NCBI GenBank assembly: GCA_965249555.1
Contig: OZ252243.1
Location: forward strand, 1,632,001 to 1,696,000
From: Nitrosopumilus sp.
GTDB lineage: Archaea > Thermoproteota > Nitrososphaeria > Nitrososphaerales > Nitrosopumilaceae
DNA: 64,000 nt
Direction: 5' to 3'
Each line of letters starts with the position of its first letter. Positions within the stretch are counted from its first letter, which is position 1. A program made the translations under genes and the position numbers. Shown in pieces: positions 41,979 to 58,314 of the stretch. The notes under the pieces are model-generated. The model was not told the DNA's origin and ran no database searches. It was given only the letters and a program-made list of their open reading frames with translations.

Positions 41979-43001
41979 TTATTCTATTTTTTTAGAGTTT
42001 ACAAAGACACCTTTCTTTTTACTAATATACCCAATTTCATATATAGTCATTCTATGTTTTTTGAAGATTTTTTTTATTTTTTTAACCTCATTCTGTGGTG
42101 AGATCAAACAAAAACCAACACCCATGTTAAACGTCTTGTACATCTCTTCTTGCTTTACTCCTTGCTCTTCAATCAGACCCATAATGGGTGGAATTTTTGG
42201 CAGTGCATCAATTTCATATCCGATATTTTTTAGTCGAAGTAGTTTTGTAAATGACCCCCCAGTGATATGTGCTAACCCATTAACTATGCATTTTTGATTT
42301 GCTTCTAAAACTGGTTTCACATAAATTTCTGTAGGGGTAAGTAATGCATTTCCTAATACCCCAACTCCTTTGATTTTATCTTTTAGAGAATATTTTGTTA
42401 ATAATGCTTTTCTTGCAAGTGAATAACCATTTGAATGGATTCCAGAACTTTTTACACCGATTATGACATCACCTGCTTTTATTTTATTTCCTAACACCAT
42501 TTCTTTTTTTGAAACTAATCCTAATACCATTCCAGCCAAATCAAACGAAAATCCTTTACCTGAAATTAAATCTGGCATAATTGCAGTTTCTCCTCCAACA
42601 ATTGGAACTGCTGCTTTTTTTGCACCTTTGACTAGCCCTTCGACAATTTTTTTAAATAATTTTACGTCATTTTTGTTTGCAGCAATATAATCTACAAATG
42701 ATATTGGCGTTGCGCCAATACATATTATATCATTAACGTTCATTGCAATACAATCAATTCCAATTGTGTCATATTTTTTCATCATATTTGCAATTACAAC
42801 TTTGGTTCCAACACCATCTGTATGGGTAGCCAAAAGTTTACCTCCTGGAATTTCTACAATTCCTGCATAATGACCAAATCCATGAGCAATCTTTGCTTTT
42901 TTCTGAAGCTTGTGAGTTGATGTAATTAGTTTGCCAATTGCTGTTTGGCTTTGTTTAATTTTAGAAATGTCTACACCTGCTTTTTTGTAGGTTAGAACCA
43001 T
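41979..43001 (-). CDS. purM: AIR synthetase
   Basis: YKKAGVD, TDGVGTK, GGETA, SSGIHSNGYSL, HITGG, TFNMGVG. Confidence 0.97.
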   Translation of the reverse strand: MVLTYKKAGVDISKIKQSQTAIGKLITSTHKLQKKAKIAHGFGHYAGIVEIPGGKLLATHTDGVGTKVVIANMMKKYDTIGIDCIAMNVNDIICIGATPISFVDYIAANKNDVKLFKKIVEGLVKGAKKAAVPIVGGETAIMPDLISGKGFSFDLAGMVLGLVSKKEMVLGNKIKAGDVIIGVKSSGIHSNGYSLARKALLTKYSLKDKIKGVGVLGNALLTPTEIYVKPVLEANQKCIVNGLAHITGGSFTKLLRLKNIGYEIDALPKIPPIMGLIEEQGVKQEEMYKTFNMGVGFCLISPQNEVKKIKKIFKKHRMTIYEIGYISKKKGVFVNSKKIE

Positions 43002-43050
43002 AGTTTGATGCGTATTTGCTGTGAATAAAAGAATTTGCCTATTGTTTCGA

Positions 43051-43776
43051 TCACATGTACATTCCAGAATTCTCTTCTCTATGTTCTACATATTTTTGGG
43101 ATAATTCACTTAATTCTGAACTGATTCTCTCTTTATCTTCTTGAAGCTCTGTAGTGTCTATATCCATTTCATAGAATCGATTTAATGCCTCAATCAGAGT
43201 TGCTGCTGCAGTAGAATCCGGTTCCGTTTTGTTTGCTTTTACTAATAGTGTTACACCTTGTATCTCTCTTACTAGACATTCGTTTAGTATGCCGCCTGGA
43301 ATACCTGTGATAAATCCTTGAGGAATCATACTGATGTCCTTGTCTGCCATTGTTCTTACCAGATCTTCTTCAGCTGCACAGTATGCTTTGTTGTCATGTT
43401 CAATACTTGCAACTCCATCTAGGATAACAATCTCTTTGGATCCTTTTTGTGCTGCCCAATCTAAAATTGATGATACCAGACAGTAAAGTCCTTCCAACTT
43501 CAATGTTATCTCACAAATTATTGCACAGATTGTTCCTTCTTGGTTTGCATAGAATCTAAACGGATGACGTAATCTGCCTCTCATGAAAACTGTTGATGGA
43601 GGGAGATACTTTGATCTCATTACTCCGATCTCCTCCATTTCTAATTTCTCAATAATGTGATTAATTGCAACAGGACCTACGAGACCTGCTCCGACAAAGC
43701 CTGCAAAGATTATTGGATTCTTCAATTCTGTTTTCTTTGTCTCAAAGACTTCAGCTTCAGGAAATTCTTTCTGCAC
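43051..43776 (-). CDS. PAC2-family proteasome assembly chaperone
   Basis: GFVGAGLVG...HPFRFY; C-terminal MYM. Confidence 0.88.
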   Translation of the reverse strand: MQKEFPEAEVFETKKTELKNPIIFAGFVGAGLVGPVAINHIIEKLEMEEIGVMRSKYLPPSTVFMRGRLRHPFRFYANQEGTICAIICEITLKLEGLYCLVSSILDWAAQKGSKEIVILDGVASIEHDNKAYCAAEEDLVRTMADKDISMIPQGFITGIPGGILNECLVREIQGVTLLVKANKTEPDSTAAATLIEALNRFYEMDIDTTELQEDKERISSELSELSQKYVEHREENSGMYM

Positions 43777-43904
43777 GATTTACGTCGATTTGTTCTGTCT
43801 AATTACTATACTAACTAAGAGTTTTGTACGCTTTTGGTGAGATGGTTTTTAGTAATTTTTACACCAAATCAAAAAGTTCTAATCTAAAAAATGATATCTT
43901 GAGC

Positions 43905-44270
43905 TCATTCTTTACTGAAATTTTGTATTGTTGTTTTTATTTTTGAAATCATTTTAAAATAATCTTCATTAGGCTCAAGACTTGCCACAAATAGGTTGCT
44001 ATTGTCTATTGGTATGTTGATTAAAGTTACCTTGTCATATTCTAAAACTGAAGACTTCTCAAAACCAAGTTCATGGGATAAATTTTGAGATTTTTCCCAT
44101 TCCCACATCGAATAATGGATGGACATTTTCAATTCATCAGGGGACAAATATTGCTCTACTCCTTTCTGTTCCAAATTGTTAACTAAAACTCCTTTAGTAT
44201 TTACTACTCCCGCAAACCTTATTTTTGAATCTAATTCAAGAATATCTTTACACAGTTTCTGGTAATCCAT
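43905..44270 (-). CDS. Thaumarchaeal roadblock/profilin-like protein (DUF6659-like)
   Basis: LCKDILELDSKIRFAGVVNTKG...LG...EYDKV pattern. Confidence 0.75.
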   Translation of the reverse strand: MDYQKLCKDILELDSKIRFAGVVNTKGVLVNNLEQKGVEQYLSPDELKMSIHYSMWEWEKSQNLSHELGFEKSSVLEYDKVTLINIPIDNSNLFVASLEPNEDYFKMISKIKTTIQNFSKE

Positions 44271-44673
44271 TGAAATTTGATGGTAAATTGATTATTAAAA
44301 TATTATTGTTCCAAAGTAAATATGATAAAACTACATTATTTTCTTTAATTCTTATTATAATTTGATTTTATATTTTTTCAATTCCAAAAATTATGCCATA
44401 ATAATCTGTATGTGAAATGTTGGTAATTTTTAGATTAAATTTTTGCAAAATTTGTTCTATTAAAGTAAATTCTACTGTATGTTGGTTTGTTTTGATCATC
44501 TGATAACAATTTCTCCCATTCAGGGTGCTCATTCTTTAAAAAATCAAAAACTTCATCATACCATTCACTTTTTTTCACTCAAATTTATTTTCTCATGTCA
44601 AGTGTAATTTTAAATCTTATGGTGAGATTTTCATTTTAGGCATAGATAAAAATGAGTAATCAGAATTTACGCT

Positions 44674-44889
44674 ATGGCAAATAGACCGGACTCTAACAAA
44701 ACCCTATCGACTAAAACTAAATTACTTCTAATTTTGATAATGTTTATTGTAATTAATTTGATTTTTTATTTTGGATTTGACTCTTCAGACGAATCAGGAA
44801 ATCCATTTGAACTAGGTGAACAAGATCAATTAATGGTTGATAAAACTGTTGAATCGGAAGAAGAAATGAATATTTCACTTCTTCCCTAG
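44674..44889 (+). CDS. Small single-TM protein with acidic tail
   Basis: One hydrophobic helix. Confidence 0.55.
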   Translation: MANRPDSNKTLSTKTKLLLILIMFIVINLIFYFGFDSSDESGNPFELGEQDQLMVDKTVESEEEMNISLLP

Positions 44890-44920
44890 TGTATTACATA
44901 TTTCATGTATGACATTAAGC

Positions 44921-45847
44921 CTAGTTTTTTCTTATTTTACTAATTGATGCGTCAAGAATTTTCTTTCTACTAATTTCAAGTATCTTGAAAATTACCTCAG
45001 AAATATTATCTGTCTTGTTTCCTAAAATTCTGATGACTATGCCCGATTCATCTGGAAGAATAGATGTGCCCACTGAAACTGTATCTGTCTTTTTGATACT
45101 TTCATTAATTGAACTTTCCAGTTCAATTACAATTTCCTTTCTAGTCAAGATGTACATTGTTCCAACTGTGTTATGCTTTCCTAGTATTCCAAAATTTTTC
45201 AATTTTTGTATTTTTGGTTCAATTTTTGTATTTTCTAAAAATCTTATTTTTTTATCTTGGTTCTTACAGTGTGTTCTTAGGTAACAAATATCATATTCAA
45301 AAGATTCCTCCATAGCAACTCTTCCAGGAGTTAAAATTTCTGAATATACCAAAGTTGCATTATCGTGAATATTCAGATTAACTTTTTGATAATATCTTGA
45401 ATTCTTGTTTGGTATTATTTGATCAGGGATGTATTCAAAATAACAATTCTCATCAACTGTGATGTTTACAATTTGTGATGCAAAATTTGAATCCATACTG
45501 TAGATGCTAGTGGCACCTTGAGTTGTCATATGGGCAACGGCTTTATTTTTTAAGGATACATCAGTTCTGTACCTGTCTCCTTGCAGAATTCCTCCTGATG
45601 GAGAAATAACATAAAGATATGCCATTTCAGGAAGTGAGTTTTCAGGATATAATGCTCGTTGAAATTGTAACGGAACTTGAGAAAATTGTTTTGTAACAAT
45701 TGTCTTACCATTACTATCTTTTTGAAGTTCCAAATCAAGAATGCCTACTTTTCCTGATTTTCCAACTTCCAATTGTTTTATTTTAGAATCATATGTCTGA
45801 ATTTCTTTTGGTATGTCATCTGGTGTGTAATATTCTAGATTATTCAA
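44921..45847 (-). CDS. ureD: Urease accessory protein UreD
   Basis: SPSGGILQGD, TTQGAT, PGRVAMEESF; last gene of ureEFGD. Confidence 0.93.
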   Translation of the reverse strand: MNNLEYYTPDDIPKEIQTYDSKIKQLEVGKSGKVGILDLELQKDSNGKTIVTKQFSQVPLQFQRALYPENSLPEMAYLYVISPSGGILQGDRYRTDVSLKNKAVAHMTTQGATSIYSMDSNFASQIVNITVDENCYFEYIPDQIIPNKNSRYYQKVNLNIHDNATLVYSEILTPGRVAMEESFEYDICYLRTHCKNQDKKIRFLENTKIEPKIQKLKNFGILGKHNTVGTMYILTRKEIVIELESSINESIKKTDTVSVGTSILPDESGIVIRILGNKTDNISEVIFKILEISRKKILDASISKIRKN

Positions 45848-45850
45848 TAA

Positions 45851-46507
45851 TCACACCTTTTGTGTAAGTTCTGATTTTGGTGCAGAATCCAACAAGACAT
45901 CATGAATAATGTGTTCAGTTATCTTCATTATGCCTTTATCTGTTTTACAATTGATAAATTCAAATGGTTTTTCTTTTCTAATCTTTTCTGCATCTCTTTT
46001 CATGATATCAAGATCTGCACCAACCATAATGGCAAGATCTATCTTGTTAATTACTAAAAGATCACAACTCTCAATTCCTAATCCGCCCTTTCTTGGATAT
46101 TTGTCTCCGCCTGCAACATCAACTATGTAAATAAAATAATCTGCAAGAAGGGGACTGAATGTAGTTGTAATGTTGTCCCCACCACTTTCAATAATTATAA
46201 GGTCAAGATCAGGATGCTCCGATTCTATTTCTTCTATTACTGCAAGATTCATGGAAGGATCTTCTCTGATTGCAGTATGTGGACAACCGCCTGTTGCAAG
46301 ACCAATCACTAAATTTTCTGGAAGTAGTCCTCTTTTTGTAGCTAAATTATCCCTCATTCTGTCAGCGTCTTCTTTTGAAATTACATCATTTGAGATTATA
46401 CTTACACTGTATCCCTTTTCAGCCAACATTGGCACCAAGCGTTCAATTAACATGCTTTTACCAGAACCAACTGGTCCTCCAATACCGATTCTTGCGATGT
46501 GAGTCAT
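45851..46507 (-). CDS. ureG: Urease accessory GTPase UreG
   Basis: GGPVGSGKS, TGGCPHTAIRED, ESGGDN, NKID. Confidence 0.97.
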   Translation of the reverse strand: MTHIARIGIGGPVGSGKSMLIERLVPMLAEKGYSVSIISNDVISKEDADRMRDNLATKRGLLPENLVIGLATGGCPHTAIREDPSMNLAVIEEIESEHPDLDLIIIESGGDNITTTFSPLLADYFIYIVDVAGGDKYPRKGGLGIESCDLLVINKIDLAIMVGADLDIMKRDAEKIRKEKPFEFINCKTDKGIMKITEHIIHDVLLDSAPKSELTQKV

Positions 46508-46524
46508 GATGAAAAATCTAATTT

Positions 46525-47226
46525 TTATGTAATAAACATTTTAGAATCCATTTTTTCATGTGACATTTGAACAATATCTATTTGGGGTGCAAATTGCCAC
46601 ATTTCAGAAAGTGATTCATTCGAATATTCTTTGATAGTTTGACTGATGATTGGTTTTATATTGTGAATTATTTTTTGAGCTTCAAAATGTTGAATTAATC
46701 CTAATCGTAATGCTGCACCTACAACCCCTACAGTAAAACCATACAATAACATCGTCATGCTTTTTTCTTTTTTAATTTTTAATGCATTACAACAAATTGC
46801 AAATGCCACAGGAAATATCCCATGTACATTGTTTTTTGTTATGTTGTTTTTGTATTGATTTAAAATTTCATCATCTTTTACAAATTCTGAAACACACTTT
46901 ACTAACTGAACACCAGATCTTACTGATGAATTGCGTATTTCTTTAATTGATTTAGTAGCAAAAGCAATACTATCTGCTTCAATTACTTTTTCAAAATCAC
47001 ATTCATTTGCACTATCAAATGCATTTGCAAGTGCAACACAATCTGATGGGCCTATCTGTTGAATAATGTTGGTTTTGATAATTTCTATCAAGTCAGTCAT
47101 GCCTTGAATTTTTTTTTCTGTGAAAAGAAATTCTAATCCATTTGAAGTAGCAAAAATGCCTGTAGGGAAAAATGAGTCAGATAATTGCATTACTCCCAAC
47201 TCTTGTTCTATCTCATCAATGTTCAT
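46525..47226 (-). CDS. ureF: Urease accessory protein UreF
   Basis: QLSDSFFPTG..ATSNGLE; C-terminal HEKMDSKMFIT. Confidence 0.93.
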   Translation of the reverse strand: MNIDEIEQELGVMQLSDSFFPTGIFATSNGLEFLFTEKKIQGMTDLIEIIKTNIIQQIGPSDCVALANAFDSANECDFEKVIEADSIAFATKSIKEIRNSSVRSGVQLVKCVSEFVKDDEILNQYKNNITKNNVHGIFPVAFAICCNALKIKKEKSMTMLLYGFTVGVVGAALRLGLIQHFEAQKIIHNIKPIISQTIKEYSNESLSEMWQFAPQIDIVQMSHEKMDSKMFIT

Positions 47227-47701
47227 GTACATCTGCACCTAATTGAGGGGAAAATATTTGCTCTTCTACTGTCATGTCAATATGGCTGATAATGCTTTGA
47301 AACAATTTTGCGAATATTTCCTTTTCTGAGTCTGCTTGAATTGGAAATGAAATCTCATCTCCTTGAATGGATATGGGTCTGTGTCTGTTTCCAATTATAT
47401 GTCCTAAAAGTACCATCACATCTGTCATCTTTTCATTTTTTAGTTTAACTGTAATTATTTTTTCTGGTAATTGTTCTACAACAATTTTTGTATCTCCATT
47501 TTTGATGATATCTCCATTGTGAAGTTTTACACCTGGGTCTAAATTCAAACCTACATCTGTTCCACGATCTGTCTTTCTTCTCAAAATTCTTTTTTCTAAT
47601 TCTATTCGTGAAATCTTGAGTCTTTCAAAACTTTCATTTCTTAAATCATCAAATTCTTTATCATGAAAAATATTACCTATGGGAGAATTAACTTCTATCA
47701 C
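47216..47701 (-). CDS. ureE: Nickel chaperone UreE
   Basis: [17 protein letters not shown]-terminal HEH. Confidence 0.92.
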
Positions 47702-47720
47702 AAGTAACTTTGTTTTTTGC

Positions 47721-47735
47721 CAAAGTTATACTTTG
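47721..47735. promoter_or_regulatory. Palindrome in the divergent ureE/ureA promoter region
   Basis: CAAAGT-TAT-ACTTTG. Confidence 0.4.
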
Positions 47736-47789
47736 TTCGACTCTTTTACCATTTTAATGATTAAATACTATAATTCACTATCCAATTCA

Positions 47790-48092
47790 TTGATGCTTAC
47801 TCCTAGAGAATTAGAAAAACTAAATGTTTTTGTTACATCAGAACTTGCTCGTAGAAGAAAAAATCGTGGACTAAAACTTAATCATCCTGAGGCTGTATCT
47901 ATTCTTGCTGATCATATTTTAGAAGGTGCTAGAGATGGAAGAAATGTTCCAGAACTTATGAGCTCCGGAAAAAATGTTTTATCAAAAGATGATGTGTTAC
48001 CTGGAGTTGCAGAACTGATTGCTTCTATTCAAGTGGAGGCAACATTTGAAGATGGAACTAAACTGGTAACAGTTCATGACCCTATTGTGTGA
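47790..48092 (+). CDS. ureA: Urease gamma subunit
   Basis: [10 protein letters not shown]...LNHPEA...[17 protein letters not shown]; true start 47790 or 47793, not 47679. Confidence 0.97.
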
Positions 48093-48097
48093 TAATT

Positions 48098-48466
48098 ATG
48101 ATTCCTGGCGAATACTTCCCATCTAATGAATCCATAATTGCTAATGTGGGAAAATCAACTACAACTGTTAGTGTTAGAAATACTGGGGATAGACCAATAC
48201 AGGTAGGATCACATACCCACTTTTTTGAAGTAAACAAGGCTCTTGAATTTCAGAGGAAACAGTCTTACGGATATCATCTCAATATTCCTGCTGGAACATC
48301 AGTGAGATTTGAACCAGGAGACACAAAAGAAATTGAACTAACAGAATTTGGTGGAAAAAAAATTGTTTATGGATTTAGTGGTCTGGTAAATGGAAGTCTA
48401 GATGAAAAGCAAGAAGAGGCATTCAAAAAAGTTACTGAAAAAGGATTCAAAGGGATGACACAATGA
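48098..48466 (+). CDS. ureB: Urease beta subunit
   Basis: [36 protein letters not shown]. Confidence 0.97.
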
Positions 48467-50175
48467 CTTTGAACATTCCAAGAAAAACATACGTTGATTT
48501 GTTTGGTCCGACTGTGGGTGACCGAATCCGTCTTGCAGATACTGATTTGATTATTGAAATTGAAAAAGACTTGATCAAATATGGTGATGAGGCTGTATTT
48601 GGTGGAGGAAAGAGCATACGAGATGGGCAGGGGCAAGCAAGTGGAGTGTCTAGAGCAGAGTCACTTGATCTTGTAATTACTAACGCAATTGTAATGGATC
48701 CAATTTTAGGAATTATCAAAGCAGACATTGGAATAAAAGATGGAAAAATTGTCGGGATAGGAAATGCTGGTAATCCTGATATCATGGATGATATTGATAT
48801 GGTAATTTCTTCAAACACTGAGATAATTGCAGGTGAGCATACAATTTGTACTCCTGGAACAATTGATTCACATGTTCATTTTATTTCTCCTCAACAAGCA
48901 ATACATGCAATTTGTAATGGTACCACTACAATGATTGGTGGCGGAACTGGCCCTGCTGATGGAACAAATGCAACAACATGCACTCCTGGTAAATGGAATA
49001 TTCATAAAATGATTGAATCCGTTGATGAATTACCACTGAACTTTGGATTTCTTGCTAAAGGAAATGATTCCCGTGAAACTGCATTACTTGAACAAATTGA
49101 AGCAGGAGCTTGTGGGCTAAAACTACATGAAGACTGGGGTTCAACTCCTGCTACGATTGATTCTGCTTTGAGGGTTGCAGACAAAACTGATACTCAAGTT
49201 GCAATCCATACAGATACTCTCAATGAATGTGGATTTGTTGATGACACAATTGAAGCAATTGCTGGAAGAACAATTCACACTTATCATACTGAAGGAGCAG
49301 GTGGTGGACATGCTCCAGATATTATGAAAATTGCAGGTGAAGAAAATATACTTCCTTCGTCTACAAATCCTACAAGACCATTTACAGTAAATACATTAGC
49401 AGAACATCTTGACATGATGATGGTTTGCCATCATCTAAATTCATCAGTTCCTGAAGATGTGTCCTTTGCAATGTCTAGAATTCGTGGTGAGACTATTGCT
49501 GCAGAGGACGTATTACATGATATTGGAGTTTTGAGTATGATGTCTTCTGATAGTCAAGCTATGGGACGAGTTGGAGAAGTTACAACCAGAAATTGGCAGA
49601 CTGCTGATAAAATGAAAAAGATGGCTGGCACATTACCTGAAGACAATGCTCAAAATGATAATTTCAGAGTAAAAAGATATCTTGCTAAAATTACAATAAA
49701 TCCTGCCATAACTCATGGGGTTTCAGATTATGTGGGATCATTGCAGCCTGGGCGATTAGCTGATATTGTAATTTGGTCCCCTGCATTTTTTGGAGTCAAA
49801 CCAAAAATGATCATTAAAGGCGGTTTTATTGCATATTCCCTTATGGGTGATCCAAATGCATCAATTCCTACTACTGAACCTGTCATGTATCGCCCTATGT
49901 TTGGAGCCCTTGGCCAAACAAAATATTCCACTTCTGTAACATTCACATCTCAACTGGCACTAGACAAGGGTATTGAATCTGAAATCAATTCAAAAAAGAA
50001 ATTGGTTCCTGTGAAAAATTGTCGTTCTATTGGAAAGAAAGACATGTTGTATAATGATCTTACTCCAAACATTGAGGTAAATCCTGAAACATATGAAGTA
50101 AAAGTTGATGGGAAAATTGCAACTACAGATCCAGCAGACAAAGTTTCTATGTCGAGACTATACAATTTATTTTAA
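48463..50175 (+). CDS. ureC: Urease alpha subunit
   Basis: [44 protein letters not shown]. Confidence 0.99.
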
Positions 50176-50194
50176 AAGTTTTTAAACTATATGT

Positions 50195-50953
50195 TTAGTT
50201 TATTGAAAATAATTTATTATCTAATCCAATTGTAATTACAATATTGAGACCAATTATGAAAGTTATACTAGCTATTGTGTATCTTAGATATTTAGTAACA
50301 TAATTAATTTTTGATAATAAAATAAATGGTAATCCCATAATGCCACTAGCAACAGTCATACCAATTATACTGCCTATGCCAAATAAAATTAGAAAATAAA
50401 TCATCATATCAAAACCATTCATTGTAGATGCAAATAATGCAACAAGACTACCACTACCTGCAATACCGTGAACACAACCAATTAGATATGCTTTGTGACC
50501 ATGTTTGTGATTTTCATTGTGTTCATGAGAATGTGTGTGAGAAATTCCGTTTGAATGTGTGTGAGGATGAACATGTTTTTGTTTAAAGATACTTTTGTTT
50601 GTAAATGTAAAAATTGCTAAAGTAATCAACATTAAACCAACAAGCACTTCTGCACTAATAAAAAAATCATTAGGTATGTTTAATGATAAACCTGCAATCA
50701 ATAACCCAATTAGAATAATGCTGGATGTATGTCCCATTCCCCAAAGTGCTCCTCTTAAAGAAGAGATAATGGTAAGATTTTGCAAGTCTCGTTTTTTTGT
50801 ACTCTTTGAATTATCGTTATTTCTTAATAGTTGAGTGGAAACTGCACTAAGATGATCAGGCTCAAAAGCATGTAATACTCCAATCATCAGACCTGCAATT
50901 ATAATTAAAAAAGGATTGTTGGCTTGTAACATTCCCATTATTGTGTCAATCAA
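50195..50953 (-). CDS. Nickel permease (UreH/NiCoT-like)
   Basis: HAFEPDH, WGMGH, His-rich loop HVHPHTH...HTHSHEH...HKHGH, HGIAGSG. Confidence 0.88.
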   Translation of the reverse strand: MIDTIMGMLQANNPFLIIIAGLMIGVLHAFEPDHLSAVSTQLLRNNDNSKSTKKRDLQNLTIISSLRGALWGMGHTSSIILIGLLIAGLSLNIPNDFFISAEVLVGLMLITLAIFTFTNKSIFKQKHVHPHTHSNGISHTHSHEHNENHKHGHKAYLIGCVHGIAGSGSLVALFASTMNGFDMMIYFLILFGIGSIIGMTVASGIMGLPFILLSKINYVTKYLRYTIASITFIIGLNIVITIGLDNKLFSIN

Positions 50954-51365
50954 TTATTCCACTACTCCTATATGCTGTTTGTTTCTGTCCATCAAGAGAA
51001 TATTGAACAATTTGAATGGGTGTTGTAATGAACATTTGTTCTTTATCCATATCTTTGGTTGTAATTGTAAAAGTTAGTTTTCTCAAGCTTTCAGGAACTC
51101 CAATCATTACTTGATGTGGTAAGAGCATATCTGGTATTTGTTTTTGTATTTCGTTGATTGTTTTACGTTCATTTAAAGAAGTTATGATATAAGCTACAAA
51201 CAACCCAAGCGTCTCGTTTATGTTTAATCGCATATTGTTTGATAGGTGATTTTTGATTAATTGTGTAGATTCGAAGAAAATTGTTTCATCAGATTTTTCA
51301 TAATAAAATATCTTGGTAAATGGCTTGATATCAGAATCTCCCTGTACCAATACTTCAATTTTCAT
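50946..51365 (-). CDS. Divergent urease gamma-subunit-like protein
   Basis: RLNINE...KTINEIQ...LLPHQVMIGVPE...TPI aligns by eye to UreA KLNHPE...RNVPELM...[12 protein letters not shown]...DPI. Confidence 0.7.
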   Translation of the reverse strand: MKIEVLVQGDSDIKPFTKIFYYEKSDETIFFESTQLIKNHLSNNMRLNINETLGLFVAYIITSLNERKTINEIQKQIPDMLLPHQVMIGVPESLRKLTFTITTKDMDKEQMFITTPIQIVQYSLDGQKQTAYRSSGIID

Positions 51366-52480
51366 TAATCTCTCTTTGGAATTTTAGATGTTGGATTACC
51401 AAAACTGTATGTGTTTCCAGTACCCATGTATGCCTTTGGTCTTACAGGATCTCCTCCCTCCAAACCTCTCTTTGTTAATGATAATCCTGCCAATAGTTCA
51501 ATAACTAATCTTTGTCCTAATCCAGATGTGATTCCTCCATTGTAAGAACTTGAATCACTGACATCATATGCTGGAGCAATTTCTACCAAATCCATTGCAA
51601 ATCTATCAGGATCAAATGATTTTGATAATAGACGAATCATTCTAATTCCTTCTCTTGATGTAAGTCCATTTGGTTCTGGTTCTCCCGTACCTGGTGCATA
51701 AGCAGGATCAAACGAATCAATATCCCAGCTAAGATAGACAGCATCTGTTCCATCATTTGCTCTGTCAGCTATTTCTTTTGCAATAACATCAATTCCTAAT
51801 TCTTCAACATCAAGCATTGTAAACCATTGGAAATCTTGGTCTGACATCCATTTGTACAAATCACGTCCTGGCCAATATCCTCTTGGGCCAACAAGCGAGT
51901 AGTTCTTTCCTTTAAGACAACCCATCTCCATTATTCTTCTAATGTGAGCTCCATGATCATACTTGAAACCAGTTAGTCCTTGTGGTGCACAATCAGCGTG
52001 CGTATCAAAATGAATCATGCCTATGTTTTTGTATTTTTTCTGAAATGCTCTAACGTTTGCATAAGTAATTGAGTGATCCCCTCCAAGCATTACAGGAATA
52101 CCATCTGCCTCTAACACTTCCTTAACTTTTAGAGTCATTCTCTTGTGTGATTCTATAACATCTCCTGGTGAAACTATAACGTCACCATAATCTACTGTTC
52201 GAAAAGTTCCAAATGGATCTGCACCCGTTTCAATATTGAATCGTTCAAAAGGAGGTGATGGAATTGTAGATGCAGCTCTAATTGCTCTTGGTCCATATCT
52301 TGCTCCGGGACGAATAGTGGTACCAAAGTCAAATGGTTCCCCAATAATTGCAACATCTGGTTTTACTTCAACTAATTCTTTGTGTGTCTTTACCCAGGGA
52401 AGATGTAAAAATGTATTAATTCCTACAAATGGTGCAACATCTGCACCTTGAAAATCATCACCATAAAATTCCATGCCCAT
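51365..52480 (-). CDS. Ureohydrolase (agmatinase/guanidinobutyrase superfamily), substrate unknown
   Basis: RPGARYGPRAIR, GGDHS, DTHAD, DIDSFDP..APGTG.PEP.G, DLVE; all six metal ligands present. Confidence 0.92.
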   Translation of the reverse strand: MGMEFYGDDFQGADVAPFVGINTFLHLPWVKTHKELVEVKPDVAIIGEPFDFGTTIRPGARYGPRAIRAASTIPSPPFERFNIETGADPFGTFRTVDYGDVIVSPGDVIESHKRMTLKVKEVLEADGIPVMLGGDHSITYANVRAFQKKYKNIGMIHFDTHADCAPQGLTGFKYDHGAHIRRIMEMGCLKGKNYSLVGPRGYWPGRDLYKWMSDQDFQWFTMLDVEELGIDVIAKEIADRANDGTDAVYLSWDIDSFDPAYAPGTGEPEPNGLTSREGIRMIRLLSKSFDPDRFAMDLVEIAPAYDVSDSSSYNGGITSGLGQRLVIELLAGLSLTKRGLEGGDPVRPKAYMGTGNTYSFGNPTSKIPKRD

Positions 52481-52519
52481 TTTAAATCAAATTCTATTCA
52501 AGACTTTGATAATTAAAGA

Positions 52520-52536
52520 TTTCAAGTAAAGTACGT
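52520..52536 (-). promoter_or_regulatory. Operator/BRE element upstream of the ureohydrolase operon
   Basis: ACGTACTTTACTTGAAA ends 39 nt before the ATG and is followed by TATA-like CTTTAATT. Confidence 0.75.
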
Positions 52537-52590
52537 ATCCTGTATTTTAATTATTAATAATCCTCATATTGCAAAAAAATTAAATTATGT

Positions 52591-52599
52591 GTAATGTAC
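52591..52599. promoter_or_regulatory. Second GTACnwTAC site (ureohydrolase/TPR divergent region)
   Basis: GTAATGTAC = GTACATTAC on the minus strand. Confidence 0.55.
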
Positions 52600-52638
52600 G
52601 ATTTAAATATAAAAATAGTATCCCTGTGAAATATCAAT

Positions 52639-53877
52639 ATGATATTACAAAATTCAAAAAATGCATGGTATTTTTTGAATCAAGGTTTGGAAGCGGTTTA
52701 TTACAGTCAATTTAAAAAAGCTGTTTTAAAATTTAACAAGGCTATTTCTCTAGAACCTGAAAATACTGTGGCACAACTTCATAAAGGTAGAACATTATAT
52801 AAAATGGAAAATTTTCAAAATGCTGTAATTTGTTTTGACAATATCTTGTCTATAGATCCAAAAAGTTTAGATGCTTTATACAACAAAGGTCTTGCACTTG
52901 AAAAGGTAGAAAAATATGAAGAAGCGATATCTTCTTTCAAAAAATCTCTTGAAATTGATTCACAATATTCTGATTCATTAACATCCATGGGGTTGTGTTT
53001 TAGTAAATTAGACCGTAATGAAGAAGCTCTAAAAATAATTGATCAAGTTTTGTTGAAAAATGCAAAAAACTCTGCTGCTCTTTACGCTAAAAGTTTGATT
53101 CTGGGAAGATTAGAAAAAAGTTCAGAGTCAATACTATTCTTACAGCAAGCTATTGATGAAGATTCTAGACAATCTGATATTCTATATGAGAAAGGGCAAG
53201 AACTTACAAAGCAAGGAAAGCATACTGTAGCAATAAAATTCTACACCAAGGCTTTAGAGATAGATAGTAAAAACACTAAGGCATTAGTGGCCAAGGGCTG
53301 GACGCTTGATTTTGCAGGATTTTCCAACAAAGATATTTTTGTATTTTATGATGAGGCTCTAAAAATTGATCCAAGATGCACTGAGGCTCAATTCAATAAA
53401 GGAATAGTTTTGGATAGAACCCGTCTGTACAAAAAGGCTATAGAATGTTTTGATAAAATTTTAGAATATGACACTGATAATGTTCGGGCACTTTACAGTA
53501 AAGGTACATCTTTATCTCAATTGAAAAAGTTTGGCCAAGCAAGATTCTATTTTGAATGTGCATTAGAGCTTGAACCAGAAAATGTTGTTGCTTTGGGTAG
53601 TATGGTATGGTTTCTAGAACATTCAAAAAAATATGATGAGGCGCTTGAATACTGTGAAAAAGCATTAAAAATCAATCCAAATTACGTATATGCAATAAGC
53701 TATAAGGGAAAATTACTTTTATTATTAAAAAAATATGAAGAATCTCTAAAATGTTACAACAAAGCAATAGAACTTGATCCAAATAATCAAACTGCGCTTT
53801 TTCACCGATTTAAAGTACAAGATAAATTAAACAAAATGAAACAAGAGTCATTTTTAAAAAGACTTACAAAATTATGA
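52639..53877 (+). CDS. Tetratricopeptide repeat protein
   Basis: About 11 34-aa repeats (A.YNKG..L...EEA...F.K.LEID). Confidence 0.92.
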   Translation: MILQNSKNAWYFLNQGLEAVYYSQFKKAVLKFNKAISLEPENTVAQLHKGRTLYKMENFQNAVICFDNILSIDPKSLDALYNKGLALEKVEKYEEAISSFKKSLEIDSQYSDSLTSMGLCFSKLDRNEEALKIIDQVLLKNAKNSAALYAKSLILGRLEKSSESILFLQQAIDEDSRQSDILYEKGQELTKQGKHTVAIKFYTKALEIDSKNTKALVAKGWTLDFAGFSNKDIFVFYDEALKIDPRCTEAQFNKGIVLDRTRLYKKAIECFDKILEYDTDNVRALYSKGTSLSQLKKFGQARFYFECALELEPENVVALGSMVWFLEHSKKYDEALEYCEKALKINPNYVYAISYKGKLLLLLKKYEESLKCYNKAIELDPNNQTALFHRFKVQDKLNKMKQESFLKRLTKL

Positions 53878-53944
53878 TACTTTTAAGAAAAAATAAAAAT
53901 TAAATTTCGAATATTTTTATATTTGTTCTTTGTACTGATTAGTA

Positions 53945-54196
53945 ATGCAGAATGTTAGCACACAAGAAGATGTCAATAGAGAATCAAAAAGAATAATCAA
54001 TGCATTATATGGGGATGTAAGCGACTTTAGGGTCAATGAAACATTTCAAATTCCTGAAAAAGGACCTAGAGAAGCTTGGGATGTTCAAGTTAATTTTATG
54101 CTGAATGCTTTGAAATATACTGTGGACCTTGAAATCCAAGAGAAAGAAGGTCATGTAACTAGTGCACGATTAATTGATACAATGACCCCCCTCTAA
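53945..54196 (+). CDS. Small hypothetical protein
   Basis: 83-aa ATG ORF downstream of the TPR gene. Confidence 0.7.
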   Translation: MQNVSTQEDVNRESKRIINALYGDVSDFRVNETFQIPEKGPREAWDVQVNFMLNALKYTVDLEIQEKEGHVTSARLIDTMTPL

Positions 54197-54238
54197 TTTT
54201 TTCAATATTTTATAAATTCAAATTATTATAAATGAACT

Positions 54239-54748
54239 TTACAGTGTTAAGATTTCTTTTGCAGCTTTAATCTTTACAAGTAATTCGTTAATGTAGCTAT
54301 CTGCAAATCTTTCAAAACTAGTAATTCCTTGGTTCTTTTTCTGTTTTTTGTACTCTTCTTGAAGCCAATTAAAATCTGATTCCTTTAGACTAATGGAATT
54401 ATTTTGAGCATCGTTTTTTGATTCAAGCATGTTAACGATAAAATAACTTACAAATTTTGTAAAGCATTTTACGCCATATTTTTTTTCATATTCATCCCCA
54501 AATTTTTTATGATTTTTTACTAACCAATCTTTTACATCCGATCTAATTGTTATCGTGTTATATCTACCCGACAAATCTAATTTTATTTTATGAGATTCTA
54601 CTGAATAATGCCCTCTCTTAATTTCATTCATTATGATGATTAAGGTACTAGGTAGAAACATTCCGGGATAGCTTTTGTCGGTTGCTTCTTGCAATCTAGT
54701 TGTAATAACTGGTTTCATGCCAAATGTCGAATATCCTTTGCCTGGCAT
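54239..54748 (-). CDS. Putative tandem ribbon-helix-helix DNA-binding protein
   Basis: Three strand-helix(-helix) units: YSTFGMKP...RL, YNTITIRSDVKDWL...FTKFVSYFI, NSISLKESDFNWL...FERFADSYI. Confidence 0.6.
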   Translation of the reverse strand: MPGKGYSTFGMKPVITTRLQEATDKSYPGMFLPSTLIIIMNEIKRGHYSVESHKIKLDLSGRYNTITIRSDVKDWLVKNHKKFGDEYEKKYGVKCFTKFVSYFIVNMLESKNDAQNNSISLKESDFNWLQEEYKKQKKNQGITSFERFADSYINELLVKIKAAKEILTL

Positions 54749-54796
54749 ATGAAATGGATCTAACTGGTGTTTATATTATTTTATGAATTTGGAAAG

Positions 54797-54967
54797 TTAA
54801 GTTTGCTTTTTTTTCAATTCTTTAATTAATCGAATTAATACCCAAAATGTTCCCATTACTACAATCCCTATGCCGAGACCACTAGAAAAAGCATTATCTG
54901 AACCAGATTGATTTAAACCCAGTCCTAAGATAATTAGAATAACTGCAAAAGCATATTGTTTATCCAC
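54797..54967 (-). CDS. 56-aa two-TM micro-protein (not in track)
   Basis: GTG start; MDKQYAFAVILIILGLGLNQSGSDNAFSSGLGIGIVVMGTFWVLIRLIKELKKKQT. Confidence 0.6.
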   Translation of the reverse strand: MDKQYAFAVILIILGLGLNQSGSDNAFSSGLGIGIVVMGTFWVLIRLIKELKKKQT

Positions 54968-55162
54968 GTTCTGCCTAAGAGGATTAATTTAATAACATTT
55001 TGAATTTTAAATTTGAGCAAAATTTTAGTAATGAAAATTTAATTATATCTTTTTGTAATCTAACAATAAGAGATTCATAATTTCATTATTTTACAAAATC
55101 ATTTAATTTATCCATTAAATTTCTGTTAAAACTACAAAATATGATGAATTATTTTGTTAAAT

Positions 55163-55210
55163 GTACTATACGAATCATTTATTCCTCAAAAAAACGTACT
55201 ATACTTGAAA
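55163..55210 (+). promoter_or_regulatory. Two GTACTATAC operator sites upstream of the SSS transporter
   Basis: Sites at 55163-55171 and 55196-55204; ACGTACTATACTTGAAA ends 39 nt before the ATG. Confidence 0.75.
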
Positions 55211-55249
55211 AATTCAATACTGATATAGTTTGATAAGTTCAATGAGATT

Positions 55250-56854
55250 ATGGTGGAGATGGATGGGTTTGGTATTGCCGTTGCCGCTTTTATTGTCATT
55301 ACACTTCTTGTTGGTGTATTCGCCGGTAAGCTAGTAAAAAATAGTGGTAAGCGACTGATCGTTGCAGGAAAAAGTCTACCTTTGTTTATGGTTGGAACTA
55401 TGCTTGCAGCACAAGCAGTTGATGGAAATTCATCGTTAGGAAATGTTGCACTTGTTTTTGAATTTGGATTTTGGGCAGGAGCAGTTATTCCGATTGGTTT
55501 AGGATTGTGTCTGTTTGTAACAGCTGCATTCTATGCTAAACCCCTAAACAAAATGTCAATGATTACATTACCTGATTTCTATTTCAGAAGATTTGGAAAT
55601 GGAGCAGAAGGTCTTTCCGGAATTCTTATGATAATTAGTTTTCTAATTCTTGTTGCAGGCAATTTAGCTGCTAGTGGATTTATTTTGGAAGTTGTGTTTG
55701 GTATAAATTATTTCTACGGTATTGCAATTTCAGCTATAGTTGTGGTAATCTATACTGTTGCTGGCGGATTATTTGCATCAGCCTATACAAATCTGTTCCA
55801 AGTTTATCTTGCAATTGGTGCATTTTGGGCTGGATTCCTTTTCTTTTATGGGGGATTTGCAGATACTCCTTGGGATGTCATTTACAACAACGCACCACCA
55901 GAGTTCATGGACCTGTCTGGATTGTACGACATGGCGAATGGAGCGCTGATTAATTGGGGTGCTATTCTTGCACTAGGACTGGGAGATATAGTTGCGCTTG
56001 ACTTTATGGAGCGAGTGTTTTCAGCTAAGAACCCCAAAACAGCACAAAGAGGTGCTTTAATGGGCGGTGCACTAACTATGTTTACAGTAATTCCAACTAG
56101 CATGTTGGGAATTGTAGCATTTTTCTATCTCCCAGCAGATACAATACCAGATTTAGCATTACCTTTACTATCCACAGAAATCTTACCATTTGCAATTGGT
56201 GCAGCAATACTGATGGGAGTAGTTGGGGCATCAATGTCTACTGCAAGTGGAGGACTATTGGCAATATCTAGTGTAATTTCCAGAAACATGATGCAGAGAA
56301 TTATCAGAAGACGATGGCAACAAAAACCAAATTGGAGCGATAGTCAATTACTCAAAGTTACTCGTCTTGTAATTATCCCAATGATGGTAATTGGAACTGC
56401 AATTGGTTATTTCGTACCAGCTCCTGGAATTTATCTCATCTTAGCATTTGACATAGTTTTTGCCGGAGCATTTGCTCCTCTTACATTAGGTTTGTTCTGG
56501 AAAAAGTCAAACATGCCAGCAGCCGTTGTAGCTCTTGTTGTTGGTTCACTAATACGATTCATCTTCTTCTTTACAATGCCAGAAGAATGGGCAGGATTAG
56601 ATACAATGATACCCCCAATCATTGCATTTGCTCTGTTCTTTGTAGTTGCACAAGCAACCCAAGGAAAGTATCCAGGAAAAGCAAGACACGATGTACGAGA
56701 CTATGTGCCACCTGAAGAAGATGTAATTGCAGGAGAAGATTTGTTACACTTCAAAAATGATACTTCGGCTACAAGTGCAGGTGGACCAAGCTCTGATACA
56801 CCAGGACCTGACACACCTGAACCCGATGATGCTACAAGTAAGGAAGTAACGTAG
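55250..56854 (+). CDS. Sodium:solute symporter (SSS) family transporter, not DUR3-type
   Basis: About 13 TMs; VAGKSLP, TLPDFYFRRFG, YTVAGGL, RVFSAK, ASMSTAS; lacks the DUR3 WTWAAT motif. Confidence 0.92.
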   Translation: MVEMDGFGIAVAAFIVITLLVGVFAGKLVKNSGKRLIVAGKSLPLFMVGTMLAAQAVDGNSSLGNVALVFEFGFWAGAVIPIGLGLCLFVTAAFYAKPLNKMSMITLPDFYFRRFGNGAEGLSGILMIISFLILVAGNLAASGFILEVVFGINYFYGIAISAIVVVIYTVAGGLFASAYTNLFQVYLAIGAFWAGFLFFYGGFADTPWDVIYNNAPPEFMDLSGLYDMANGALINWGAILALGLGDIVALDFMERVFSAKNPKTAQRGALMGGALTMFTVIPTSMLGIVAFFYLPADTIPDLALPLLSTEILPFAIGAAILMGVVGASMSTASGGLLAISSVISRNMMQRIIRRRWQQKPNWSDSQLLKVTRLVIIPMMVIGTAIGYFVPAPGIYLILAFDIVFAGAFAPLTLGLFWKKSNMPAAVVALVVGSLIRFIFFFTMPEEWAGLDTMIPPIIAFALFFVVAQATQGKYPGKARHDVRDYVPPEEDVIAGEDLLHFKNDTSATSAGGPSSDTPGPDTPEPDDATSKEVT

Positions 56855-56998
56855 CAAAATCAAATAATGCAGAAGTCTCTGCTCATTTGATTTTATGTTC
56901 TTTATTTTTGATAAATTAAATTCATCAGTAAGCATATTTTAATATCTCTAAAAGTGGTTATAGTGCAGGTTTAACCAATTAATCCAAGTTTAATGGTA

Positions 56999-57118
56999 CC
57001 TCACGTGAGTTTGGATGGCGGCACTCCTGCCGAAGCCTGCGGCATTCAAGTCGAAGGAAAAAATCAATGGTTACCCCTTATTCAGAACGCAAAACTAGTT
57101 GATTTAACACGTGTTTAA
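56999..57118 (+). pseudogene. C-terminal remnant of a DDE integrase/transposase
   Basis: PHVSLDGGTPAEACGIQVEGKNQWLPLIQNA matches the PH.SL.G.TPAE end of the integrase core. Confidence 0.7.
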
Positions 57119-57167
57119 AGCAAAACTACAAGCATTTAAGAATCTGAAATATATTAATATATTATAA

Positions 57168-57284
57168 TTGGAAGAAGAAGAGGAAGAAGAAATGACTGAT
57201 GAAAGTAGAGAAATAATAAAAGCACTTGTAAAGAAAACTTTGACTCGACACAGAATTATATTTGAACGATTAGACGAACTTTGA
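57168..57284 (+). CDS. 38-aa acidic candidate antitoxin for the Doc toxin (not in track)
   Basis: MEEEEEEEMTDESREIIKALVKKTLTRHRIIFERLDEL; TGATG overlap with the toxin start. Confidence 0.55.
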   Translation: MEEEEEEEMTDESREIIKALVKKTLTRHRIIFERLDEL

Positions 57285-57544
57285 TGATTGATTTTAATAC
57301 AGATGTTATTAAGGCAATTCATACTGAATTAGAAAAATCTTTTCCAAGAATGGAAAAGGGAATTATTCCTGAGAAAGAACCATTACTTCAATCTATTATT
57401 GAAAAACCAGATAGAATACTTTTTGGTGTTGAAAGCCCATATCAAGATTTGATAAGTAAAGCAGCTGTTATGATGGAGGCAATAACTCGATGGCATGTTT
57501 TTGTCGATGGAAACAAAAGAACATCATTTTTGACACACATCTAG
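57284..57544 (+). pseudogene. Fic/Doc toxin, apparently C-terminally truncated
   Basis: KAAVMMEAITRWHVFVDGNKRT Doc motif with a stop only 6 residues later. Confidence 0.8.
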
Positions 57545-57630
57545 GCTGGGATGATATTAATGGAGCAGTTTTGTGCCTAAAAATTGCTAATTTTTATAAT
57601 TATTATAATGAATATAATTTTTATAATGGG

Positions 57631-57657
57631 ATTGTAACGTTATTGTAACGTTACAAT
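57631..57657. promoter_or_regulatory. Perfect 16-bp palindrome plus a partial direct repeat
   Basis: ATTGTAACGTT followed by ATTGTAACGTTACAAT, overlapping an ATG at 57656. Confidence 0.5.
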
Positions 57658-57975
57658 GATACCAAAAGAAAAACTACAATGGACTGAAAAAGATAGCAAG
57701 GATGCTAAGACATTTGTAGACGGTGTCAAAGATGGTTCTATCAAAACTACAAATTTCCTCAATTTAAAAAGGGCATAATCTTTACACATTACAACTATGC
57801 CGTGGGTTGCTGTATCTCCAATATCATTCATTAGTACTGTAAGAGATCTTCCTATTGATGAACCTACATAACGTGCGATTAGATTGTTGTTTTCGCTCTC
57901 TGCAATTACATAAACTCCTCTCGTTTCAACCCATTTTGGGGACAAATTGTCCGTTTCCGATTGGATTATAATCAA
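57640..57975 (-). pseudogene. Possible GIY-YIG nuclease fragment
   Basis: GVY-x13-YVGSS; the remainder looks like read-through into unrelated sequence. Confidence 0.3.
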
Positions 57976-58162
57976 ATGGGCCGTTCCAAGTTAGTTTTTG
58001 CATATATTGATAATTTCTTTACAAATAATAAATATTGAAAAGCTTAACAAAAGCTTCTGAAAAGCCAATCTCTGTTATTTCCATGCGTAAAAACATGATA
58101 TATTCATAAGAAAAGATTGGAAATTCTTTACTAGTCATATTCACTTGTGTCTATAACCATTG

Positions 58163-58295
58163 TTTAATGTACTAAACATTGATTGTAGAATTACTTTAAT
58201 GGACTAAACTTTGATTTTACGTTGTTTTAATGGATTAAACCTTGATTGTAGAACTGCTTTAACCCATTAAACCTTGATTCTAGAATTGTTTTAAT
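58163..58295. repeat. Non-coding 31-32-bp imperfect tandem repeat x4 ending in the chaperonin promoter
   Basis: Units start at 58163, 58195, 58226 and 58258; consensus tttaatggaYtaaaccttgattgtagaattgY. Confidence 0.88.
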
Positions 58296-58314
58296 ATCTA
58301 AAAGGAGGCTAAAA

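Follow-up and report, generated by a model that had tools for sequence, protein, structure and literature searches.

An archaeal ureohydrolase–transporter module linked to urease, with a possible role in the use of guanidinium compounds

Genes of the locus and a shared promoter element

The 64,000-nucleotide stretch of a Nitrosopumilus sp. genome that was analyzed here (the window) corresponds to G000:C1:1632001-1696000 of a 2.23-Mb single-contig genome. Between positions 44921 and 56854 it carries a urease gene cluster, followed by genes for an arginase-family ureohydrolase (P0001; UH) and for a transporter of the sodium:solute symporter (SSS) family (P0004). These two proteins form a conserved module in ammonia-oxidizing archaea (AOA) and in haloarchaea, and this module may deliver urea, released from an imported guanidinium-type compound, to urease. 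The features of the locus are as follows, with window coordinates and strands.

44921-45847 (-): ureD (PF01774, 162 bits)
45851-46507 (-): ureG, urease accessory GTPase (PF02492, 113.6 bits)
46525-47238 (-): ureF (PF01730, 105.4 bits)
47216-47701 (-): ureE (PF02814 and PF05194)
47679-48092 (+): ureA, urease gamma, open reading frame (ORF) as listed (PF00547, 142.6 bits, match from residue 39)
48089-48466 (+): ureB, urease beta (PF00699, 142.9 bits)
48463-50175 (+): ureC, urease alpha (PF00449 and PF01979)
50195-50953 (-): P0003, His-rich polytopic membrane protein, putative Ni/Co transporter (HAFEPDH and His-rich loop)
50946-51365 (-): P0002, UreA paralog (PF00547, 27.9 bits; cut-off 23.9)
51365-52480 (-): P0001 (UH), arginase-family ureohydrolase (PF00491, 267.9 bits; cut-off 22)
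52520-52536 (-): operator-like element, copy 1 (ACGTA-N3-TACTT), 40 nt upstream of the UH start
52639-53877 (+): TPR-repeat protein, divergent from UH (TPR Pfam families; synteny)
53945-54196 (+): o83 (P0125), conserved 83-aa protein without known family (ORF in 64 AOA loci)
54239-54748 (-): o169 (P0126), conserved 169-aa protein without known family (ORF in 42 AOA loci)
54797-54967 (-): ORF of 56 aa immediately upstream of o169, with two predicted membrane helices (tblastn)
55194-55210 (+): operator-like element, copy 2, 40 nt upstream of the SSS start
55250-56854 (+): P0004, SSS family transporter (PF00474, 100.8 bits; cut-off 22.8)

The urease set is complete by Pfam, comprising ureABC and ureEFGD. 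UH, P0002 and P0003 form a three-gene minus-strand operon that is convergent with ureC, and the SSS gene is located 2.8 kb from this operon. The gene content described in a sequence-only reading that preceded this analysis (a urease cluster, an operon of ureohydrolase, UreA-like and membrane protein genes, and an SSS gene) is all present, and so is the translational coupling that it proposed for the operon. The stop codon of UH and the start codon of P0002 have one base in common in the junction TAATG, and the stop codon of P0002 either overlaps the TTG start of P0003 by 8 nt or lies 7 nt ahead of a P0003 ATG; in the genome's own gene call, P0003 starts at Met6 (50938).

The UH and SSS genes are preceded by two copies of one sequence element. 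In the UH copy, TTTCAAGTAAAGTACGT (52520-52536), 16 of the 17 positions are identical to the reverse complement of 55194-55210. The two copies are oriented alike with respect to the gene that each precedes, and each ends exactly 40 nt ahead of the start codon (52480 for UH and 55250 for the SSS gene). Of 200 mononucleotide shuffles, 3 produced a 16/17 match at any position between these intergenic regions, and the identical placement of both copies makes chance less likely still. The core of the element is near-palindromic, ACGTA-N3-TAC(T/G)T, and is followed by the TATA-like TTTAATTAT. No more than 15 sites in the 2.23-Mb genome match ACGTANNNTACGT with one mismatch or none. Five of these precede a long ORF by at most 120 nt, among them the sites of UH and the SSS gene. 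When up to two mismatches are allowed, UH is preceded by a ACGTANNNTACGT site in 25 of 33 Nitrosopumilaceae loci, at a distance of 33-44 nt. The same holds for 25 of 32 loci from Nitrososphaeraceae, Nitrosocosmicus, Nitrosotalea and further AOA, 23 of which have the site at 44-50 nt; the background is 4.6-4.7% of random 120-nt windows from the same loci. No such site was found upstream of UH in 44 haloarchaeal loci. Upstream of the SSS gene, the element is present at 33-44 nt in 12 of 32 loci. The shared 17-bp promoter element noticed in the sequence-only reading is confirmed, at 16 of 17 positions, and is also conserved in other genomes. In our reading, the element would serve as an operator, through which a dimeric regulator would co-control UH and the SSS gene.

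A third close match to the operator, ACGTACTATACGC, is located outside the window at G000:C1:1562712 (L093 2713-2725), 31 nt upstream of an ORF of 203 aa. This ORF belongs to no known family and is followed by the gene for aIF5A. The match may mark a further member of the regulon, or it may have arisen by chance.

Rfam searches over 43000-58500 returned no guanidine riboswitch or other relevant RNA family at E ≤ 1. A match to 5_ureB_sRNA (RF02514, a Helicobacter antisense RNA) at 48623-48906(-), antisense to the 5′ part of ureC, scored 43.6 bits (gathering threshold 40), and most likely reflects conserved urease coding sequence rather than an archaeal sRNA. A sigma-70 and terminator scan gave fewer promoter-like sites than shuffled sequences, with a bacterial model that is not meaningful for archaea. 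As regards gene boundaries, the ureA ORF as listed carries 38 additional N-terminal residues, which overlap ureE; behind them come Met39 and then LTPRE, a sequence shared with other UreA proteins. The Pfam match from residue 39 and the UreA alignment agree that the true start is probably Met39 (47793), and a start at this position would leave a 91-nt divergent spacer between ureE and ureA. The possibility that the locus is a recent genomic island was considered and dropped, as its GC content is unremarkable and the UH tree roughly tracks taxonomy.

Distribution of the module and nature of the transporter

The occurrence of UH, urease and P0004-type transporters was analyzed in 301 species genomes of Nitrosopumilaceae, which include the unpublished G092 and G228 (both positive for UH, ureC and the SSS gene). 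An orthologue of UH is present in 97 genomes and ureC in 142, with both found in 93. The four genomes with UH and no ureC are 61-85% complete, and 49 genomes have ureC without UH. In the window's genus, UH occurs in 7 of 38 genomes. P0004-type transporters are present in 94 of the 301 genomes and in 18 of 27 genera, and 93 of these 94 genomes are UH-positive; the one genome with the transporter and no UH is G119 (60% complete), and the genomes with UH and no P0004-type transporter are G018, G106, G133 and G270. Co-occurrence of the hydrolase, the transporter and urease had been proposed in the sequence-only reading as a test, and its outcome is favorable, with the transporter tracking UH and not urease.

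UH and ureC are located on one contig in 60 genomes, and in 46 of these they lie within 30 kb of each other (2.5-25 kb); another 33 genomes have the two genes on separate contigs. Among 14 loci in which urease is distant, 13 have the SSS gene beside UH (20-kb locus), together with o169, o83, the TPR protein, the UreA paralog and P0003. None of 19 examined urease loci from UH-negative genomes contains a P0004-type transporter. In 13 of these 19 loci, a different SSS protein, 24-27% identical, is encoded within about 5 kb of urease (downstream of ureC in 11). Both SSS types occur together in one locus in L036 and L046.

The PDB sequence search with P0004 gave no match to solved DUR3 urea transporters at E 1e-5, whereas a DUR3-type SSS from the same genome, used as a positive control, matched DUR3 at 2.3e-190. 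The claim that the transporter lacks DUR3 character is thus borne out. The nearest solved relative of P0004 is the choline transporter CHT1 (1.3e-23), and P0004 is about 25% identical to AOA SSS proteins of the DUR3 type, with which it shares the family. Since DUR3-type SSS proteins are encoded in the genome and P0004 has no DUR3 match, this genome has ordinary urea transporters besides P0004.

The DUR3-type SSS genes of this genome are two in tandem (769 and 667 aa) and lie outside the window at G000:C1:1786636-1791447 (L174), about 105 kb from urease; in many relatives, one copy directly follows ureC. The second, 667-aa protein is the one that matched DUR3 at 2.3e-190, and the DUR3-type copy of this genome is 87.5% identical to a relative's copy beside ureC.

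These data bear on the possibility that P0004 is a urea transporter of a non-DUR3 kind, so that the module would be an extension of urea uptake in which UH has a side role. SSS transporters of AOA are generally taken to be DUR3 urea transporters, in the part of PMC10432482 available to us, and the module often adjoins urease. However, in addition to the absence of DUR3 similarity in P0004, the genome already has two DUR3-type genes, the two SSS types coexist in L036 and L046, and the P0004 type is found in only 1 of the 49 urease-positive, UH-negative genomes (the incomplete G119). We therefore regard urea transport by P0004 as very improbable.

The module is not limited to Nitrosopumilaceae. 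With a haloarchaeal relative of UH as query, a search covering a single genome for each species identified 80 loci, 45 of them haloarchaeal and 35 from other Nitrososphaeria, including Nitrososphaeraceae, Nitrosocosmicus, Nitrosotalea and Nitrosomirales. In AOA from soil and elsewhere, UH shares 72-81% identity with P0001 and is accompanied by the UreA paralog, o83, o169 and an SSS protein that is 50-67% identical to P0004. In L142, L150 and L163, the genes are arranged on one strand in the order UH, (UreA-like), P0003, ureABC, ureEFGD.

Of the 45 haloarchaeal UH loci, 41 encode an SSS protein 34-40% identical to P0004 and 6 contain urease genes. In a sample of 121 haloarchaeal genomes, the UH orthologue was found in nine, all of which have ureC (34 of the 121 genomes have ureC overall). 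Two haloarchaeal genomes outside this count, in which UH is unlinked, likewise carry ureC. The pairing of transporter and hydrolase and the restriction to urease-bearing genomes thus hold in two archaeal phyla. A protein with a DNA-binding domain of the AbrB/MazE type and a PhoU domain is encoded between the SSS gene and UH, directly upstream of UH, in 41 of 44 haloarchaeal loci (L094-L138); from its domains it is probably a regulator, and a different candidate from anything in the AOA module. Clustering of the neighbors in these 44 loci showed that only UH, the AbrB/PhoU protein and the SSS protein are conserved, with no carbon-skeleton enzyme among them. An ORF with a JAB domain (27 loci) and dehydrogenases (7 loci) were considered as clues to the substrate and look incidental. 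A ZnuA-type binding protein is encoded near one haloarchaeal UH locus.

The ureohydrolase clade

Alignment of UH to 9FEK and 7ESR shows that all six metal ligands are present (H136, D159, H161, D163, D253 and D255), as are the catalytic His176 and the guanidinium-binding Glu300, and the motifs GGDHS, DTHAD and SWDID. The six ligands, the catalytic His and the Glu are invariant in 37 members of the clade. The motifs HGAHI, GTGEPEP and GPRGYWP quoted in the sequence-only reading are all found in the UH translation. For the guanidinase of Nitrospira inopinata, the text available from PMC11410670 gives the ligands as H182, D207, H209, D211, D299 and D301 and proposes T105, H222, W313 and E344 as residues for guanidine hydrolysis (the chain index of 9FEK is this numbering + 2). 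The UH equivalents of Thr105, His222 and Glu344 are T55, H176 and E300; they are also found in the guanidinobutyrase GbuA, the guanidinopropionase GpuA and proclavaminate amidinohydrolase (PAH) and hence do not discriminate between these enzymes. Judged by its residues, UH looks like an active ureohydrolase. Its best matches among PDB sequences were as follows.

3NIO: guanidinobutyrase GbuA, E 4.7e-50 (best match)
7ESR/7OI1: Synechocystis guanidinase, E 7.7e-49
9FEK: N. inopinata guanidinase, E 1.5e-47
3NIP: guanidinopropionase, E 1.1e-41
1GQ6: proclavaminate amidinohydrolase, E 1.2e-40
8SNF: metformin hydrolase subunit A, E 7.5e-35

By these scores, no single family stands out. UH is set apart by two signatures, G-[FY]-x-[YFH]-D-H-G-A-[HW]-[IV] and GTGEPEP, which travel together among the best 120 database relatives and occur in both Nitrosopumilales-type relatives (66-94% identity) and haloarchaeal ones (about 50%). 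The exceptions are two divergent Nitrosopumilales-type sequences with HGTHI or HGTFI (the latter with GTGTPEP) and two relatives with GTGVPEP. GTGEPEP is present in 85 of the 92 listed clade relatives with at least 47% identity, the remainder being five fragments without the region and two sequences with Val. The relatives that come next, at 42-45% identity, show the usual HG[TS]P[MIV] and GTGTPEP. A quick maximum-likelihood tree was built with 55 rows, all uncharacterized proteins. In it, a branch of 1.73 (SH-aLRT 87) divides the GTGEPEP group (46 rows) from the ordinary rows, and the group splits into an AOA subclade of 31 rows and a subclade of 15 rows from haloarchaea and metagenomes. The separation from GdmH, GbuA and SpeB was made by PDB-sequence scores and residue mapping. 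Taken together, these comparisons indicate that UH forms a clade of its own and is distinct from GdmH, SpeB and GbuA. The clade also has invariant residues throughout a C-terminal segment (312-348), which the solved relatives lack. UH is conserved to an unusual degree: across genera of Nitrosopumilaceae it is 77-97% identical, clearly exceeding UreC (75-94%) and, by far, the UreA paralog (29-68%) and P0003 (35-82%).

GbuA and GpuA of Pseudomonas aeruginosa (3NIO and 3NIP) resemble UH in the HG start of the loop that follows the catalytic His and in a G-x-R motif. They differ in that GTGTPE is replaced by GTGEPEP, HGT[TP]F is replaced by HGAHI and UH has the extra conserved C-terminal segment. 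Presumably, the GTGTPE and HGT[TP]F positions set specificity. The Glu of GTGEPEP (Glu267) occupies the position that is Trp313 in guanidinase and Thr in GbuA, GpuA and PAH, and could pair with a free NH2 group or with a cationic substituent of the substrate. Unlike in the case of GbuA and GpuA, no gene that would handle a carbon product was found in the module, in either AOA or haloarchaeal neighborhoods.

UH shares its superfamily and a database name with the agmatinase SpeB, and its relatives are publicly named 'agmatinase' or 'guanidinobutyrase'. It could accordingly be a second agmatinase or arginase of polyamine or arginine metabolism, with urease recycling the by-product urea and no external compound involved. 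As far as the accessible parts of the cited papers go, two to three speB copies are counted in AOA (PMC10753782), SpeB-derived urea has been proposed and AOA agmatinase is assigned to polyamine metabolism (PMC6790972), the latter also in PMC8573960. UH, however, scores under both curated agmatinase cut-offs (TIGR01230, 156.6 vs 174.3; NF002564, 205.5 vs 302), and in its active site Thr is replaced by Glu and HGTP[FM] by HGAH[IV]. The genome has a second PF00491 gene that is SpeB-like (291-292 aa), 28% identical to UH and separated from it in the tree by a branch of 7 to 10. The sequence-only reading had named grouping with housekeeping archaeal agmatinases, combined with an SSS that transports only urea, as one outcome that would speak against it, and UH did not group with the SpeB-like paralog. 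In addition, any PF00491-type match is found in 279 of the 301 Nitrosopumilaceae genomes, whereas UH is present in only 97 and is tied to a transporter and a common operator, as would be expected of a facultative uptake pathway. A role as a housekeeping agmatinase or arginase is therefore improbable.

A proposed route to ammonia, metal supply and accessory proteins

The recognized substrates of AOA are ammonia, urea and, rarely, cyanate, and for an ammonia oxidizer ammonia is both energy substrate and nitrogen source. In the route that we propose, P0004 would import a guanidinium-type compound, UH would cleave it to urea and ammonia or an amine, and urease would turn the urea into ammonia and CO2. 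UH and the SSS gene would be co-regulated through the common operator ACGTA-N3-TACTT just upstream of both TATA boxes, and the AOA module would also comprise the UreA paralog, o83, o169, the small membrane protein and the TPR protein, with a His-rich metal transporter usually added in Nitrosopumilaceae. We consider uptake of a guanidinium-type compound, its hydrolysis to urea and subsequent urease action the probable function of the module; the direction of flux, the identity of the substrate, the metal and the accessory roles are what we infer. The dependence on urease, the common operator and the lack of a carbon-product enzyme in the module argue for a catabolic route.

Free guanidine is a tentative candidate for the substrate, and substituted guanidines, of which methylguanidine, agmatine and guanidino acids are examples, have about the same tentative standing. 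We lean to a small cation (guanidine or methylguanidine), because the module has no carbon-handling enzyme and its importer resembles choline transporters. In the available text of PMC11271267, the nickel dependence of guanidine and metformin hydrolases is ascribed to their resonance-stabilized substrates; if UH were nickel-dependent, free guanidine or a similar compound would thus be favored. The sequence-only reading had proposed that a substituted guanidine is imported and mined for ammonia. Import and mining agree with the co-occurrence and linkage of the transporter, UH and urease, but the sequence favors neither a substituted over free guanidine nor nickel.

The closest known precedent is the GdmH pathway (Synechocystis Sll1077 and N. 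inopinata), which likewise consists of an arginase-family hydrolase, a dedicated importer and urease downstream, and whose Thr105, His222, Glu344 and six metal ligands are kept in UH. The two systems differ in several respects. The importer in the GdmH pathway is an ABC or APC transporter, and that of the archaeal module is an SSS protein. GdmH operons have a guanidine riboswitch, HypA/HypB-like Ni chaperones or both. In the archaeal module, no riboswitch was found by Rfam, and a protein-operator-like DNA element is present instead; no such chaperones were identified among the neighbors of UH by Pfam, and the UreA paralog is present instead. GdmH is bacterial, and the hosts of UH are archaea. 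Growth of comammox Nitrospira on guanidine was shown in 2024, and the portion of PMC11410670 at hand reports guanidine degradation genes in none of the AOA screened, the cultures tested being only ammonia-oxidizing bacteria and N. inopinata. Likewise, the available text of PMC12625717 reports no guanidine genes in nitrifier metagenome-assembled genomes by blastp against known ones. In full-text literature searches, we found no published description of a urease-linked ureohydrolase-SSS module in archaea.

Three studies contributed four metatranscriptome libraries with contigs of 90-99% similarity to the window, which span nearly all of UH (51337-52472) and most of the SSS gene (55260-56854). 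They leave the TPR gene, o83/o169 and intergenic parts mostly uncovered, which is no evidence of silence. These contigs are only a hint that UH and the SSS gene are transcribed in nature.

Several observations weigh against the proposed route. The clade lacks the guanidinase hallmarks, as the sequence-only reading had noted, with Glu267 (GTGEPEP) at the Trp313 position and HGAHI in place of HT[CT]PW, so the GdmH precedent does not transfer directly. P0004 matches the proline symporter family TIGR02121 at E 1e-30 (far under its cut-off), about as well as it matches choline transporters, and because these scores are similar it says little about the substrate. The distance between UH and urease is 94 kb to 1.3 Mb in 14 of the 60 genomes with both on a single contig, and within the window's genus UH adjoins urease in two of six single-contig genomes (this one and G013), the seventh having the genes on different contigs. 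Moreover, the related genomes are not independent, so that the counts given above describe a pattern and not a probability, and their statistical weight is overstated. The contigs from RNA libraries derive from relatives of this strain, and DNA carry-over is possible. No biochemistry or physiology on any member of the UH clade was found in the literature. Finally, co-occurrence with urease could reflect a common need for nickel insertion by UreEFGD.

This last point leads to the main rival explanation, which concerns the metal and in which the accessory proteins P0002 and P0003 are central. P0002 aligns with the UreA of the window over the whole gamma-subunit fold at 18% identity and has a different N-terminal strand-like segment. 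It passes the Pfam cut-off for PF00547 and remains under the NCBIfam urease-gamma equivalog cut-offs (26.1 vs 123 and 25.2 vs 82.3), and it is encoded with UH rather than with ureBC. These features suggest a UreA paralog that is not a urease subunit in the ordinary sense, although databases name it 'urease subunit gamma'. The P0002 ORF is found in 52 AOA loci and in none of 45 haloarchaeal loci, and it is missing in some Nitrosopumilaceae loci (e.g. G013, G177 and G080).

P0003 has no Pfam match at E ≤ 0.001, and its score against the RcnA family NF007454 is 16.3 bits (E 0.004; cut-off 195); some of its relatives are named RcnA by JGI. In its translation, HAFEPDH lies close to the N-terminus and there is also a long loop rich in His; both this H-x4-DH motif and the loop resemble what we take to be signatures of Ni/Co transporters. 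P0003 is encoded beside UH in most Nitrosopumilaceae loci, and its relatives lie beside ureD in three UH-negative genomes (L073, L079 and L088), which suggests that urease, UH or both may receive nickel through it. The 'Ni permease' of the sequence-only reading is thus a His-rich membrane protein coupled in the operon as described, but its assignment to nickel is a putative one, given an RcnA score of 16 bits against 195.

According to the metal explanation, UH would receive nickel through UreE/F/G/D and the His-rich transporter, with the UreA paralog as an adaptor; UH would then not have to produce urea for urease and might act on some other amidine or guanidine derivative. Dedicated chaperones are required by the known Ni-dependent ureohydrolases, in the parts of PMC11271267 and PMC12186494 that were available, and UH is confined to urease-bearing, hence UreEFGD-bearing, genomes. 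The haloarchaeal modules, however, show the same restriction to urease-bearing genomes and lack both the UreA paralog and the His-rich transporter. In AOA, the UreA paralog is translationally coupled to UH, and in 13 of the 14 loci with distant urease the His-rich transporter lies within 0.1-7.8 kb of UH and was not seen near urease there (L053-L066 vs L067-L072), but most soil-AOA loci have no His-rich transporter beside UH. As the residues for guanidinium hydrolysis are all conserved in UH, urea is the expected product. We consider it unlikely that metal supply accounts for the urease link, and this explanation is compatible with, rather than exclusive of, uptake and hydrolysis of a guanidinium-type compound.

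A more far-reaching version of the uptake-and-hydrolysis route, which we regard as speculative and rather doubtful, would be a dedicated and regulated pathway for free guanidine or a small guanidinium cation in about a third of the sampled Nitrosopumilaceae, in soil AOA and in urease-bearing haloarchaea. Its UH clade would have evolved independently of bacterial GdmH, the compound would be a direct nitrification fuel in AOA and the UreA paralog would couple the hydrolase to urease or to its nickel-insertion machinery. We know of no such coupling role for a homologue of a urease subunit. What is new here is a distinct enzyme clade, transporter family, regulation and set of accessory genes on a known type of pathway. 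If confirmed, the proposed function would extend the substrate range of archaeal nitrification by a class of organic nitrogen compounds, explain genes that are filed as spare 'speB' and 'ureA' copies and define a new specificity class of ureohydrolases. It is directly testable, since one genus includes both cultured strains that have the module and cultured strains that lack it.

The remaining proteins of the AOA module lie between UH and the SSS gene. By synteny, the TPR protein is conserved beside UH in Nitrosopumilaceae. For o83 and o169, no Pfam or NCBIfam match was obtained, and profile searches of the PDB gave nothing credible (E 0.021 and 0.32); from its N-terminal pattern, our guess is that o169 is a candidate regulator. 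The two-helix ORF of 56 aa (54797-54967) is unannotated, and tblastn matches to it were found at the same place beside o169 in 28 loci of relatives.

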